IMG/VR virus record: IMGVR_UViG_3300047550_003584
Span: 12,777-76,776 of that record
Source: a virus
Strand: one strand, 5' to 3'
Length of the DNA: 64,000 nt
Part shown: piece after piece, positions 11,826-32,382 of the stretch
How the letters are laid out: the number at the start of each line of letters is the position of its first letter
Position numbering within the stretch: the stretch's first letter is position 1
Position numbers and translations under genes: made by a program
The notes under the pieces: generated by a model
Seen by the model: only the letters and a program-made list of their open reading frames with translations
Database searches by the model: none
What the model was told of the DNA's origin: nothing

Positions 11826-13562
11826 ATGCAATTTGCTCTACCATCTAATCTGCAAACTGAACTGATTGCCTATGATCCAACGCTCAAGGTGTTGGCTAAG
11901 CAAGCTAACAAACCTGCAGCCAAGAAACCTACATATCCACTTGGCAAGATTCCTTGCTTGATACCAACGCATATTGTGCGTGAAGCTGATCAGCAAGATG
12001 TAATTGCTCAGATCAATCAGCGTCCAGCACCACAGCGTTATCAAGTGTTTACTACGCCTGTAGATGTAGCAACACCACAGGCTAGGCTTAAGGTCATTGC
12101 CATCCTGTATCACTACGAACAAGTGTGGTATGCAGCATGGCTACCTTCTAAAAAGGAGAAGGATGATTATGTGTTTGGTCATGCATATGCATTCAAGAAC
12201 ACATCAACTACACATAAAATTGCGCCAACTTGGATATGGAATAGTAAAGATGATTGCGTTGTCCACGACATTGGTCGTGGCTCACAACTCTTTGTGCATA
12301 GCAAAGTTGTAACTAAAGCAGATATCTGTGGTCAAAACTATGATAGCTGGCGTAGTTATCCATGGCGAGCAGGTAACCTTTACTGCCAGAAGGGTTATAC
12401 AATTCGTGACAATGTTGTTACTGAATTTGATAACAGCCTAAGGGAAGATCTCCCAACATGGGAGGATTCACGTGGATTGTTTGACAGAATACGCTGCAAG
12501 AATATCTTTGATGCAGCAGAAATACCGTCAATGATGTCAAAACATCTTGACGAAACTCAAGGCTTGACTGTTGATAACTTCATTGCTGGTTCACTTGCAT
12601 TCAAAGAAGAGCATGGTTATAGCTCCATAACATACTCTATTGTCACGAGGATTCAGCACATTGTCGCTAAACCTACTATCAAGAAACTATTGCAAGCAGA
12701 GTTGAATCGTAGTATTGATGCATACAATGATCCTAATAACAAACATCAGCAACCTATTAAGCAAGGCTTTTTAACTTTTGTACAGATTCTTAACTCAATT
12801 GAGTGGATCAATAACATTTGGCCAGACTGCCCTATTGATTACTATCAGACTTACTTCAAGGAACTCAAGTATCTTCGCTTGACTGAAGTACGTGTACGCA
12901 ACGGAGCTACACAAGAACCTTGTTTAATTAATTGGTTACGTGCGCACATGCCTATTGCATCATTGTTTACAATCATGCGCAAGTACTTGGATAGACAACT
13001 TACTGAATACAATGGTCGCTGGGTTGATAGTGATGTTGGTTACCAGCGTCAACGCTTTGGTGAACTAAACGATACATTCTCCATGATGAGTAAGATCTTG
13101 GATGCAGGTAAAACACTAGAGCCACCAAAGCGTTGGCGACTGACTGAGTTCCATGACTACGTGCAATCTGAGGCATGGAAGATTGAGAATCCAAAGGAAT
13201 CTTTACGGCAAGATTTATTCCCTGAACCTATTAAAGTCAAGCGTCTTGATAATGTATGGACATTCTTCCAGCCTATTGATACACATCAACTATCTATGTG
13301 GGGTCAAGCCGTACGCAATTGCGTTGGCTCTGCATCCCACTATGCGGATGACATCAAGAAACGTAAGCACTTCATTGTGCTGTGCATGATTGATAGCAAG
13401 CCCACCTTCACAATTCAATTGGTTGTGGACCAGGGCATGATGTCTGTCAAACAGATTGCTGGTGTTGGTAACCAGCGATTGACTGACGACCAACGTGAAG
13501 CTTACACAGAAGCTTTCCGTGAGGTCTTGCAGCAACGCGAGAAACAGCTAGCATGTAGCTGA
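11826..13562 (+). CDS. PcfJ-domain protein
   Basis: C-terminal FHD..., QPIDTHQLSMWGQAVRNCVGS..Y...TFTIQL...QIAGVGN pattern typical of PcfJ-like domains. Confidence 0.7.
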   Translation: MQFALPSNLQTELIAYDPTLKVLAKQANKPAAKKPTYPLGKIPCLIPTHIVREADQQDVIAQINQRPAPQRYQVFTTPVDVATPQARLKVIAILYHYEQVWYAAWLPSKKEKDDYVFGHAYAFKNTSTTHKIAPTWIWNSKDDCVVHDIGRGSQLFVHSKVVTKADICGQNYDSWRSYPWRAGNLYCQKGYTIRDNVVTEFDNSLREDLPTWEDSRGLFDRIRCKNIFDAAEIPSMMSKHLDETQGLTVDNFIAGSLAFKEEHGYSSITYSIVTRIQHIVAKPTIKKLLQAELNRSIDAYNDPNNKHQQPIKQGFLTFVQILNSIEWINNIWPDCPIDYYQTYFKELKYLRLTEVRVRNGATQEPCLINWLRAHMPIASLFTIMRKYLDRQLTEYNGRWVDSDVGYQRQRFGELNDTFSMMSKILDAGKTLEPPKRWRLTEFHDYVQSEAWKIENPKESLRQDLFPEPIKVKRLDNVWTFFQPIDTHQLSMWGQAVRNCVGSASHYADDIKKRKHFIVLCMIDSKPTFTIQLVVDQGMMSVKQIAGVGNQRLTDDQREAYTEAFREVLQQREKQLACS

Positions 13563-13613: not shown

Positions 13614-13835
13614 ATGACTGACTACACCGACGATCAGCTACTTGCCATGGCTATGGCCAACATTGGTGAGTACATCACGGACAACTCACCACAGTACATC
13701 TTGATTGAAGAAGATCCTCGCAATGAGGATGATTACGATAGCTGGACTTACGGAATGGAAGTCCTACCTCAAGACCACACTTGGCAGTCAGATTCAATTG
13801 ACGTAAGTCCAAGTGATGCAGACATGGCGGAATAG
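13614..13835 (+). CDS. Small acidic protein; stop codon lies inside tRNA-Leu
   Basis: 73-aa ORF; TAG at 13833-13835. Confidence 0.7.
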   Translation: MTDYTDDQLLAMAMANIGEYITDNSPQYILIEEDPRNEDDYDSWTYGMEVLPQDHTWQSDSIDVSPSDADMAE

Positions 13836-13903
13836 GTAGACGCAACGGACTTAAAATCCGTAGGCCATTGGCCGTGAGAGTTCAAGTCTCTCTGTCTGTA
13901 CCA
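13818..13903 (+). tRNA. trnL: tRNA-Leu(UAA) with encoded CCA
   Basis: GCAGACA/TGTCTGT acceptor, ACGGA-CTTAAAA-TCCGT anticodon arm, long variable arm, GAGAG-TTCAAGT-CTCTC T arm, ACCA. Confidence 0.95.
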
Positions 13904-30292: not shown

Positions 30293-30835
30293 ATGTATAC
30301 TCCTGGTCCTCAAACGCAACAACCACCCCAGATGGGGGTGACTCCAGAGCCGCAAGCAAAGCCCAAGGCGCCTGGTAAATCAAAGAATGGTGATGTTGGG
30401 GCCTTTATCCAGCAATGTATTTCCCTCTGCTCCTACCTCAAGGAACTTCAAACACAAGCGCACTTGGTCCATTTAAATTTTGAGGGATCAAACTTTCTTG
30501 GCGTGCATGCTTTTCTTAAAGAACAATATGAAGCTCATCTAGAACAGTTTGATACGTTAGGTGAGTTTATTCGTTCTTTAGATTATTTAATGCCGATGTG
30601 CGCCAGGGGGCTGGCAGATGCTGGCCCAGGTATTCAGCATGTTACTAGCTATAAAGGTACTGATCAACTTGCTACGTACTACAAAAATCTTGAAGAGCTT
30701 GGCATGAAAGCTAAAAAACTTGAGCCTATTGCGGCCAAGGTAGGTGCTATTGACGTGCAAAATTATATGGCAGAGCTTTGCGGCCAAGCTTTTAAAGCTG
30801 CTTGGTTCTGTAAAGCTACTCTACGTAATGGGTAA
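30293..30835 (+). CDS. dps: Dps/ferritin-like protein
   Basis: HLVHLNFEGSNFLGVHAFLKEQY...FDTLGEFIRSL retains the H, H, D, E ferroxidase pattern. Confidence 0.85.
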   Translation: MYTPGPQTQQPPQMGVTPEPQAKPKAPGKSKNGDVGAFIQQCISLCSYLKELQTQAHLVHLNFEGSNFLGVHAFLKEQYEAHLEQFDTLGEFIRSLDYLMPMCARGLADAGPGIQHVTSYKGTDQLATYYKNLEELGMKAKKLEPIAAKVGAIDVQNYMAELCGQAFKAAWFCKATLRNG

Positions 30836-31070
30836 GACGGTGACAGTTGCAACATAATAGTATACACTTGCTAATCTCTTCTTCTACGCGTTTCCAGGCG
30901 TAGCCATGGTTCACCATGCTGGAGATGTTATTGTCCTTGTCTCCAATGTGGTGGAACTCAAGGACACGATGATCATTCAAACCACACTTCTCGCATTGCA
31001 GAGTCTTCTTGTACTCCAGAAGCTTTTGTCGGTTCTTGTTGATGCGTTCCTTGGATTGGCTCCAGGGCAT
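30816..31070 (-). CDS. Small HNH endonuclease
   Basis: CEKCG..LEFHH..EISKCILLCCNCHR. Confidence 0.85.
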   Translation of the reverse strand: MPWSQSKERINKNRQKLLEYKKTLQCEKCGLNDHRVLEFHHIGDKDNNISSMVNHGYAWKRVEEEISKCILLCCNCHRLTHYVE

Positions 31071-31123
31071 TTATAAAATTTATTCGTGTAATTAATATAA
31101 CGCTTTTATTGATGTTTGTTATA

Positions 31124-31195
31124 TCGAGATGACAGGGATTGAACCTGTGACCCTCTGCTCCCAAAGCAGATGCGCTACCGCTGCGCTACATCTCG
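31124..31195 (-). tRNA. trnP: tRNA-Pro(UGG)
   Basis: CGAGATG/CATCTCG acceptor, TCTGC-TTTGGGA-GCAGA, ACAGG-TTCAATC-CCTGT; no encoded CCA. Confidence 0.95.
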
Positions 31196-31198
31196 GAG

Positions 31199-31282
31199 CA
31201 GGGCAAGAGTATCCGCCTACGATAATCTACGATGCGGCCTAGGGGACTCTTTGTTTAATGCAACGTTCCTTGTTGCACCCTG
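31199..31282 (-). ncRNA. Unassigned structured RNA
   Basis: CAGGG/CCCTG closing stem; TGCAAC/GTTGCA, AAGAGT/ACTCTT and CCGC/GCGG stems. Confidence 0.65.
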
Positions 31283-31283
31283 A

Positions 31284-31354
31284 TCGGTCGTGCTGGAATC
31301 GAACCAACTTTCTCGTGCATTGTCTGCCCGTCCTTACCAATAGACTACCGACCG
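31284..31354 (-). tRNA. tRNA-like RNA with aberrant anticodon arm
   Basis: Acceptor CGGTCG/CGACCG, D arm GTCT-ATTGGTAA-GGAC, T arm GTTGG-TTCGATT-CCAGC; anticodon arm short and lacking U33. Confidence 0.7.
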
Positions 31355-31359
31355 AGTGA

Positions 31360-31441
31360 CCCCCTGGTTTGTGCATCATCCTGAAAACCATTTTGTTGAC
31401 GTCAACAAAATGGTCTACGTATCGGAGCTAAGCATAGGGGG
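31360..31441 (-). ncRNA. Unassigned structured RNA containing a 28-bp perfect palindrome
   Basis: CCCCCT/AGGGGG closing stem; ACCATTTTGTTGACGTCAACAAAATGGT at 31387-31414. Confidence 0.6.
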
Positions 31442-31448
31442 TGTTGTT

Positions 31449-31533
31449 AATAGATGGATGCAGTGTAACTGGCTTACCGACAATCGGGCTGTGAGTTAAC
31501 CAGGCGTATCCAGACAGTGACTGCACCTCTATC
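31449..31533 (-). ncRNA. Unassigned structured RNA
   Basis: ATAGA-GGTGCAGT/ACTGCATC-TCTAT closing helix; internal CTGGTTA/TAAGCCAG and CCGA/TCGG stems. Confidence 0.55.
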
Positions 31534-31537
31534 ATTG

Positions 31538-31690
31538 TTACTCCGGGGCCTTTGCTGACAGAGAGCAAAGGTTGGTAACCCGGAGAGGCCAGAATAAATC
31601 CTGGACTTAATCTTGGGCTCTCCTTCTAGGCTATCTGCCTAACGAGTCACCCAGCCTTCGCGCTTGCCGAATCGGTCCCCGGCGCATCAG
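31538..31690 (-). ncRNA. manA-RNA-motif-like element
   Basis: GCGCCGGG...GACTCGTTAGGCAGATAGCCTAGAAGGAGAGCC...CTCCGGG/CCCGGAG, recalled as similar to manA RNAs found beside cyanophage tRNAs; not verified. Confidence 0.5.
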
Positions 31691-31725
31691 CGGCCAACTG
31701 AGCCCCATCGAAAGAGAGGGGGAAC

Positions 31726-32382
31726 TCACATATTATACACACAACTTACATCACGGTACTTTAAAAACGTGTCATACATGAAATGATCTGACGTCTCAAT
31801 CATCCGTGAGTTCTCAACACTGTACTCATTCAGGTCAATCTCGTAGCCAGGGTTCTTATCAATCCTGTTGCGTAGCCAAGCGTCATCGTACCAAATGATT
31901 TTGTTATTGGGGTACGCGTAGAAGTTTCCGTTGTCCATACGAAAGAAATGCGCACACTTATGTTCAGGCGTTTCGCTGAAGTTAGTGTTAAGAGTTGCTT
32001 TGGATTCCCAAGACCAATCCAGCGTGAACATGTAAACGCCTTGATTGCGTTCTTCTTTGTAGTTAATTAGCTCTGCGCGTAAGTTGGCAAGACGTGAGCG
32101 CACCTGCACATCGATATAGGGAGAGAAGCAATCCCACCACATACACTCGTTCAACACAGGGACTGGTGCATCTGGTTTCCAGCACAACGCATGGATTGGG
32201 CGACGGGTCCAGTTGACGCCATTCTCCAGAAACACCTCAAACAAAGGTACGCGTTTCTCCAGGGATGCTACAGAGTGTACGTCGCAAGGCGTTACCTCGC
32301 CCTGACCTTGCTTGTGGTTGTATAAAAACTCGTTGCGTATATAGCAAGTGAAGGTAGGTAGGTTGTGGTTGAGATATGCCAC
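31726..32382 (-). CDS. Conserved phage hypothetical protein
   Basis: MAYLNHNLP..YIRNEFLY...WWDCFS...YMFTLDW...EHKCAH...GNFYAYPNN. Confidence 0.85.
   Translation of the reverse strand: MAYLNHNLPTFTCYIRNEFLYNHKQGQGEVTPCDVHSVASLEKRVPLFEVFLENGVNWTRRPIHALCWKPDAPVPVLNECMWWDCFSPYIDVQVRSRLANLRAELINYKEERNQGVYMFTLDWSWESKATLNTNFSETPEHKCAHFFRMDNGNFYAYPNNKIIWYDDAWLRNRIDKNPGYEIDLNEYSVENSRMIETSDHFMYDTFLKYRDVSCVYNM

Follow-up and report, generated by a model that had tools for sequence, protein, structure and literature searches.

A block of small folded RNAs packed around a single proline tRNA in a freshwater cyanophage

The window analysed here is a 64,000-nucleotide (nt) stretch of viral DNA, positions 12,777 to 76,776 of IMG/VR record IMGVR_UViG_3300047550_003584. 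On its minus strand, at positions 31124–31725, is a non-coding block that consists of one normal transfer RNA (tRNA) plus six or seven small folded RNAs. Five RNA families in the block have conserved and covarying secondary structures. The families are found almost only beside tRNA genes and on the same strand, and among related phages the modules are exchanged, deleted and nested in each other's loops. Rfam 15 lacks four of them, termed motif A, U2, the GACAA tRNA-like RNA and U5. The block is very probably a cassette of structured RNAs that are under selection.

The source of the block is a freshwater cyanophage. The best DNA matches to the window are freshwater metagenomes, and Synechococcus phage S-EIVl is the only cultured phage with similar DNA beyond a tRNA-sized stretch. 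The virus record that contains the window is 76.8 kb in length and 97% complete.

The original prediction, made from the DNA letters, described about 600 nt of minus-strand non-coding DNA filled by six self-closing units, one of them a normal tRNA. The non-coding character is confirmed, as no open reading frame (ORF) of more than 50 amino acids (aa) was found on the minus strand within 31124–31725, and there is indeed a single normal tRNA, tRNA-Pro. The count of six does not stand. The stretch 31535–31725 is composite and not one unit, and therefore the block has seven to eight modules. The spacers are confirmed as short (5, about 7–11, 5, 1–2 and 3 nt, as read from the sequence), and the three units that had been left unassigned, at 31449–31533, 31360–31441 and 31199–31282, keep their coordinates, each belonging to a family with compensatory changes. 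A scan of positions 30900–32000 against the 4227 families of Rfam 15 at E ≤ 10 places only the tRNA-Pro and, weakly, the tRNA-like unit U4 in described families, the other matches being obvious noise. The minimum free energy fold of the whole block leaves U2 and U3 closed, with long-range pairings elsewhere, and is uninformative.

Structured RNAs of the block

U5 is an 84-nt three-way junction RNA at 31199–31282 (minus strand), a structure that is based on covariation in 16 sequences. The U5 loop sequence used as a query detects 16 IMG/VR contigs. In the alignment of the 16 distinct sequences pairing holds in 98.8% of the pair cells, and compensatory changes are seen in 11 of 20 pairs; shifted registers give 37–47% pairing. 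Conservation of the loop is partly circular, since the loop was the search key, but conservation of the stems is not. Its elements are a short stem that closes the junction, a hairpin of 6 bp with an AAGGAAC loop, an invariant UUAAA joint, a 7-bp helix with a bulged A, a CCCCU internal loop and a 4-bp helix. This last helix is capped by a 17-nt loop formed by two AUCGUAG half-sites. About 35 unpaired nucleotides of the RNA are invariant. Two close relatives (L019:3952-4078 and L020:3919-4045) have a 43-nt hairpin precisely between the AUCGUAG half-sites.

BLAST searches locate U5 together with U4 in an unannotated gap of the tRNA array of phage S-CREM1, between tRNA-Met and tRNA-Leu, and U5 alone in phage DSL-LC03. 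The U5 covariance model finds matches in phage DNA only, with one copy in this phage genome and none in 151 cyanobacterial genomes (0/151), and U5 has no match in the Rfam scan of 30900–32000. The 16-mer of the loop has 37 exact matches in 185,579 prokaryote genomes, which is estimated to be no more than chance, and one of these is a true U5 (L103:342-425). It is found in a metagenome-assembled genome labelled Acidimicrobiaceae and is identical to the S-CREM1 copy; therefore it probably represents a cyanophage contig binned into that assembly.

The pistol ribozyme (RF02679) was considered as an assignment for U5 and rejected. The likeness is in the order of helices, i.e. hairpin, A-rich linker, helix, internal loop, hairpin, 2-nt joint and return strand. 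The pistol model gives no match, there is no 6-bp pseudoknot and there is no conserved G-U site: the position of pistol G-U cleavage is variable in U5 (AU, AC or GU), and a possible pseudoknot would have only 2–3 invariant pairs. In contrast to pistol, U5 is without the conserved GCG and has a large invariant loop of its own.

The canonical tRNA of the block, tRNA-Pro with anticodon UGG, had been predicted and is at 31124–31195 (minus strand); it is called by ARAGORN and matches Rfam RF00005 at 70.3 bits. A tRNA-like RNA was likewise expected, and it is found as U4 at 31284–31354 (minus strand) on the basis of family covariation. The U4 body has a 6-bp acceptor stem with a conserved G-A or G-G mismatch (G/A in the window) and tRNA-like D and T arms. 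In place of the anticodon arm there is a 4-bp stem, which has a bulged A and carries a pentaloop of invariant sequence GACAA, and U4 thereby falls outside the tRNA definition of a 5-bp anticodon stem and a 7-nt loop with U33 and an anticodon. The Rfam tRNA model gives 31.1 bits on U4 against a cut-off of 29 in a search of 1.1 kb only, and U4 is unlisted in the gathering scan of the whole window. ARAGORN calls a 'tRNA-Cys(ACA)' at 31282–31355, and this call is an artefact of the non-canonical anticodon arm.

The U4 family alignment (12 sequences) is 100% paired, with compensatory changes in 11 of 19 pairs, including all four pairs of the mini-arm. Members score 85–99 bits with the U4 covariance model, two divergent members 52–55 bits and real tRNAs below 38 bits; GACAA is retained on a new stem in a divergent member. 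The U4 signature is present in at least 120 IMG/VR contigs, with 97 distinct sequences among the matches listed and at least six covarying stem variants. The family was not found in the 151 cyanobacterial genomes. As judged from these alignments, U4 is a selected RNA and not a decaying tRNA gene, and it is unable to decode. Conservation of the GACAA mini-arm suggests that the arm has a function of its own.

The stretch 31535–31725 had been read as one manA-like RNA, and neither the label nor the unity holds. There is no match to manA (RF01745) at E ≤ 10 in 30900–32000, while the same tool, run on S-CREM1 as a control, finds manA at 96.6 bits, and the stretch is a composite of motif A, a nested module B and an insert termed U1b. 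U1a (31615–31705, minus strand) is a motif A hairpin with module B inserted in its 5′ bulge. The outer stem is GGGCU/AGCCC, the middle stem CUC/GAG and the inner stem UAGGC/GCCUA; the loop is AGAUA and the internal loop GU/GAAG, the motif A consensus being ASAUA and GY/GAAG. The motif A core is found in 83 IMG/VR contigs. Its 42 distinct variants are 94% paired, compensatory changes are seen in seven of eight variable pairs, and the inner stem covaries also in L033 and L182. Motif A occurs as a free-standing 38-nt unit between a tRNA and U5 in L004 and is nested in U2 in other relatives. A search of 401 cyanobacterial genomes gave four matches at two mismatches, against about 11 for the control, i.e. 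chance level.

Module B (31653–31699, minus strand) carries a GGCAAG motif, and evidence for it as a module is limited. It is free-standing in L023, L027 and L030. Its six variants include changes from GCGC/GCGC to GAGC/GCUC, with outer stems that differ. An RNA contig of a relative skips precisely the module B segment, and relatives without module B exist.

The U1b insert (31531–31609, minus strand) is 79 nt in length, forms two hairpins and is absent from the closest relatives, L019–L021. Its boundary is ambiguous by a 3-nt GAT repeat that is common to the start of U2. The main hairpin has no exact match in IMG/VR, and the RNA contig X20 carries a variant of U1b in which the changes preserve the hairpins. 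The insert is so far known from this lineage alone.

U2 (31449–31533, minus strand), which is based on family covariation, consists of a hairpin core plus an insert. The family core is a 38-nt hairpin, represented in minimal form by L023:2581-2618, with the invariant flanks GAUAGAGG and UCCAUC. The family has 32 distinct members and is 97.8% paired, and all five variable pairs of the 5-bp P2 stem are compensatory. At least six types of loop insert are known, including one or two tandem copies of motif A, and the 47-nt loop insert of the window is common to close relatives only. At L182:11405-11502 two tandem motif A copies are found inside one U2 scaffold, the second with an inner stem UGGGC/GCCCA in place of UAGGC/GCCUA.

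Purine-rich exposed stretches are found in several units: the 3′ strand of motif A has GAAGGAG, which is Shine-Dalgarno-like (31620–31626), the U2 bulge has AGAGG (31526–31530) and the U5 loop has AAGGAAC (31265–31271).

U3 and the abiF RNAs

U3 (31360–31441, minus strand) is an abiF-like RNA. This is based on alignment with the Rfam-grade abiF RNAs of S-CREM1, L004 and cyanobacteria. The original prediction could name no function for the unassigned RNAs; for U3 this is now narrowed to a relationship with abiF. The first 10 and the last 21 nt of U3 are almost identical to the Rfam-grade abiF of S-CREM1, L004 and L025. The RF03085 consensus has a 6-bp P1, a 3-bp P2, an 11-nt loop and a CAAAUC joint. 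U3 retains P1 (5–6 bp), a gap of one or two nucleotides, the 3-bp P2 and a 3′ junction, CAAACC, of the form CAAAYC, and its core alignment (A6) has 95.7% pairing and compensatory changes in four pairs. The terminal loop of abiF, a conserved stretch of 11 nt (CUCUCAACGAU), is absent, and there is an extended arm of ~56 nt instead. The arm holds a perfect palindromic hairpin at 31387–31414, the centre of which changes from GACGUC to GGCGCC in a relative. Because P1, P2 and the joint are kept and a Rfam match is absent, U3 is regarded as an insertion-bearing derivative of abiF and not as a member by the curated test.

Minimal abiF forms are also found in phages, with copies at L001:2059-2095 and L004:9976-10012 and in L025, and they score 50–52 bits on RF03085, above the Rfam cut-off. 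Their loops are nearly identical to that of a cyanobacterial copy that precedes an Abi_2 gene. In the sample of 151 cyanobacterial genomes, abiF RNA is above the cut-off in three. One cyanobacterial abiF immediately precedes an Abi_2 gene (176 bits), and at a second, separately retrieved locus an abiF of 43 bits is likewise before Abi_2. Abi_2 genes are present in 25 of the 401 cyanobacterial genomes searched, including 2-Mb genomes of picocyanobacterial size; a cyanobacterial AbiF is encoded, for example, by the ORF at L140:1459-2445. At L141:1501-1537 a cyanobacterial abiF (48.9 bits) is followed by an ORF of the uracil-DNA-glycosylase family (1568–2341) and not by Abi_2.

The HEPN toxin AbiF is neutralised by abiF RNA, an antitoxin that acts in trans (PMC12373285). 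A search for an Abi_2 (PF07751) gene covered this phage, whose record is 97% complete, together with S-CREM1 and three related contigs, and found none; the downstream neighbour of U3 is the tRNA-like U4 and not an Abi_2 gene. U3 differs from abiF systems also in being single, not a tandem pair, and in its location in a tRNA array.

Association with tRNA genes and shuffling of modules

Motif A is at a median distance of 12 nt from the nearest tRNA and is on the same strand in 58 of 59 cases. Within 600 nt of motif A sites, U2 is found at 44, U4 at 25, U5 at 18 and abiF at 17. At 13 of the 16 loci a tRNA or tRNA-like unit begins 0–9 nt downstream of the 3′ end of U5. The tRNA array of S-CREM1 holds wcaG (92.7 bits), manA (96.6 bits) and abiF (52.2 bits) in addition to U4 and U5.

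The order and content of the arrays vary. The closest relatives have U1a-U2-tRNA, U1a-U2-X-U5-tRNA or U1a-U2-U3-U5-X-tRNA, and in other relatives the array is on the opposite side of a conserved 218-aa ORF. The unit X is a further structured-looking unit that occupies differing slots (L019:3858-3950 and L020:4046-4137) and is not in the window.

Among the types sought in cyanobacterial genomes (abiF, U5, U4 and motif A), a host counterpart was found for the abiF type alone, namely the cyanobacterial abiF before Abi_2. The manA and wcaG RNAs (RF01745, RF01761) of T4-like cyanophages have been described (PMC2864571; for S-CREM1, PMC9964418). These RNAs are like the window units in being structured RNAs of the same cyanophage tRNA arrays; they differ in that neither matches the window, whose units are other families. 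The S-CREM1 paper lists only the Rfam families abiF, wcaG and manA (PMC9964418), and literature searches gave no account of motif A, U2, U5 or the GACAA tRNA-like RNA.

Evidence of transcription and possible processing

Metatranscriptome contigs from four studies cover and bridge units of the block. One RNA contig, which has a single mismatch, runs from the end of U5 through the whole of U4 into the start of U3. Three RNA contigs, from three studies, have U3-U2 joined to U1a, 31530 to 31610, with U1b skipped; one of them has a depth of 126. The bridging of neighbours, together with the five covarying families, fits the original proposal of several structured RNAs and one normal tRNA in one precursor. 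RNA contigs of four runs gave nothing on 30600–31068 or 31739–32340, which is not evidence of differential expression. Short RNA-contig pieces on 31133–31180 and 31315–31353 were set aside, as they have loose ends and belong to tRNAs of other organisms.

A candidate −10 box, TATAAT, was read from the sequence at 31732–31737 (minus strand), inside the last codons of the upstream ORF; it lacks a good −35 element, and the consensus promoter scan does not report it. A start 6–8 nt downstream of this candidate would coincide with the first base of the RNA block.

Release of the units by tRNA-processing enzymes is plausible, because two tRNA-shaped units punctuate the block and U5 so often adjoins a tRNA or tRNA-like unit (13/16 loci). 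It should be pointed out that a terminal helix alone is insufficient to make a substrate for RNase P or RNase Z. Precedents for tRNA-type release of linked RNAs are T4, mascRNA and the herpesviral TMERs. The T4 tRNA cluster yields the stable RNAs C and D (species 1 and 2) from the same precursor as the tRNAs, and their function is still unknown. The window units are similar in that they are situated among tRNA genes on the same strand. They differ in that the cyanophage families are modular and nested and, in this block, outnumber tRNAs six or seven to one. In mascRNA (MALAT1) and the TMERs of murine gammaherpesvirus 68, a non-decoding tRNA-shaped element recruits RNase P/RNase Z and thereby frees linked RNAs. 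These systems are eukaryotic or herpesviral, whereas U4 has a conserved GACAA mini-arm.

Proposed function and alternatives

In the explanation favoured here, the block would be a single transcription unit from which a series of small stable RNAs is produced. Cleavage by host RNase P and RNase Z at U4 and at tRNA-Pro would release U5 as an RNA of ~88 nt and a 5′ piece of ~370 nt (U1a-U1b-U2-U3) or smaller pieces. Such tRNA-punctuated processing of the cassette seems somewhat more probable than its absence, to judge from the arrangement of the units. Once released, the RNAs would bind host defence proteins in trans and thereby serve as decoys. U3 and its minimal relatives would imitate the AbiF antitoxin RNA and keep host AbiF, a HEPN RNase, silenced; phage abiF-type RNAs could do this because no toxin gene was found in the five phage records searched. 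The anticodon-less U4 would stay out of translation and titrate enzymes for which the tRNA body is the recognition element.

Decoys are favoured because a recognisable relative is known for one unit only, and this unit copies an antitoxin RNA, no toxin gene having been found in the phage records searched, and because an anticodon-less tRNA body is suited to titrate tRNA-directed enzymes. A further reason is the precedent of pseudo-ToxI, with which phage PhiTE copies an antitoxin RNA of its host and overcomes abortive infection (PMC3475682). The decoy role proposed for the abiF-like unit is modelled on pseudo-ToxI, but pseudo-ToxI is a tandem repeat that matches ToxI, and here only the abiF-type unit has a host counterpart. 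Decoy function of the cassette RNAs is rated as possible rather than probable. The co-transcribed, tRNA-punctuated cassette of stable RNAs that act as decoys is the best explanation as a whole, and a tentative one that could well prove incorrect.

Several observations weigh against this explanation. The RNA contigs show multi-unit RNA, or carried-over DNA, and are mute on RNA ends and abundance. A consensus scan detected neither a terminator nor a sigma-70 promoter that has a −35 element, nothing being above the shuffled expectation. The Rfam abiF model misses U3 even at E ≤ 10 (the membership cut-off being 37 bits), and the conserved 11-nt loop is lost in U3, so that AbiF binding may be lost as well. 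Counterparts in host genomes were not found for U5 (0/151), U4 (0/151) or motif A (401 genomes), and U2 was not searched. The concept of host RNA mimicry is thus unsupported for these four.

A different view is that the units are regulatory RNAs that act in trans or in cis (aptamers, riboswitch-like RNAs or small RNAs) and tune host or phage metabolism, as has been proposed for manA and wcaG, and that they are in the tRNA cluster only owing to its strong transcription and tolerance of insertions. The long-standing riboswitch candidates manA and wcaG are indeed in the same arrays of S-CREM1 and L004, and the ~35 invariant unpaired nucleotides of U5 are reminiscent of RNAs that bind a ligand or a partner. 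Yet there is no conserved downstream gene to control, the neighbours being tRNAs or other modules, and within the window no target is complementary to the U5 loop, its own gene excepted. A regulatory role, and with it this account of the location, is considered unlikely. The units might also be helpers of tRNA processing or stability, i.e. spacers, exonuclease blocks or self-cleaving RNAs that are functionless after release, with U5 perhaps a new self-cleaving class with pistol-like helix order. Small ribozymes beside phage tRNAs are known, for example the theta ribozymes (PMC10879173), U5 adjoins the 5′ end of a tRNA or tRNA-like unit at the loci counted above, and its helix order and UUAAA linker recall pistol. 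But Rfam ribozyme models are without a match at E ≤ 10, and the pistol dinucleotide and pseudoknot are poorly represented in U5, as described above. In addition, seven modules for one tRNA appear disproportionate, and RNase P already forms the 5′ ends of tRNAs. Both the helper role and the new self-cleaving class are therefore rated as quite improbable.

The modules could also be selfish mobile sequences that spread among phage tRNA islands, perhaps with an adjacent HNH endonuclease, and bring no benefit to the phage. Insertion at short repeats (GAT at the U1b borders), nesting and the differences between close relatives are in keeping with mobility, as is the HNH gene that follows the array in many loci. 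Against a purely selfish nature, invariant loops and compensatory stems persist across phage groups as distant as Kyanoviridae and the S-EIVl-like phages; moreover, mobility and function are not exclusive. There is only a small chance that selfish spread is the explanation. That the units are decayed tRNA genes or chance intergenic hairpins is hardly credible. Single-sequence folding is unremarkable for some units, with z = −1.2 for U2 and −1.6 for U4, but this reading is contradicted by strong family covariation with clean shifted-register controls, and by a GACAA arm that is kept throughout the 97 distinct U4 sequences among the matches listed.

Neighbouring genes

The block is flanked by two ORFs on the minus strand. 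The upstream one (31726–32382) encodes 218 aa and is the conserved ORF mentioned above; its stop codon abuts the RNA block. It has at least 595 relatives in IMG/VR and matches phrog_3704. Searches gave no Pfam family and no informative PDB match for it, and nothing links it to RNA. Directly downstream of the array is an 84-aa HNH endonuclease-like ORF (30816–31070), which matches PHROG HNH families at E 4.5e-21 and has a weak Pfam HNH match. An HNH-like ORF is found directly after the RNA array in the window, L003, L009 and L019–L031, and it may be linked to mobility of the cassette. A second canonical tRNA of the window, Leu(UAA), is at 13818–13903 on the plus strand, far from the block and on the opposite strand.

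Significance

Phage tRNA clusters are usually viewed as codon-usage or anti-tRNase devices only, and the tRNA locus described here is mostly non-tRNA RNA. Four uncatalogued RNA families are widely distributed among uncultured cyanophages, occur in two cultured cyanophages as well, and show clean covariation. As they are absent from Rfam, widespread and cleanly covarying, these families are ready for registration and testing. The presence of one RNA module nested in the loop of another represents an unusual mode of RNA evolution.

It can be speculated that cyanophage tRNA islands are RNA anti-defence islands, that is, a shuffling toolkit of decoys, each directed against a different defence protein and released by tRNA punctuation, though this generalization is at present rather doubtful. 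With the same reserve, such a toolkit would include an orphan copy of the AbiF antitoxin, a GACAA tRNA body and at least three aptamer-like families (motif A, U2 and U5). The link between U3 and the AbiF antitoxin provides a concrete hypothesis, namely that RNA serves counter-defence in phage-host systems that are the most abundant of marine and fresh waters.

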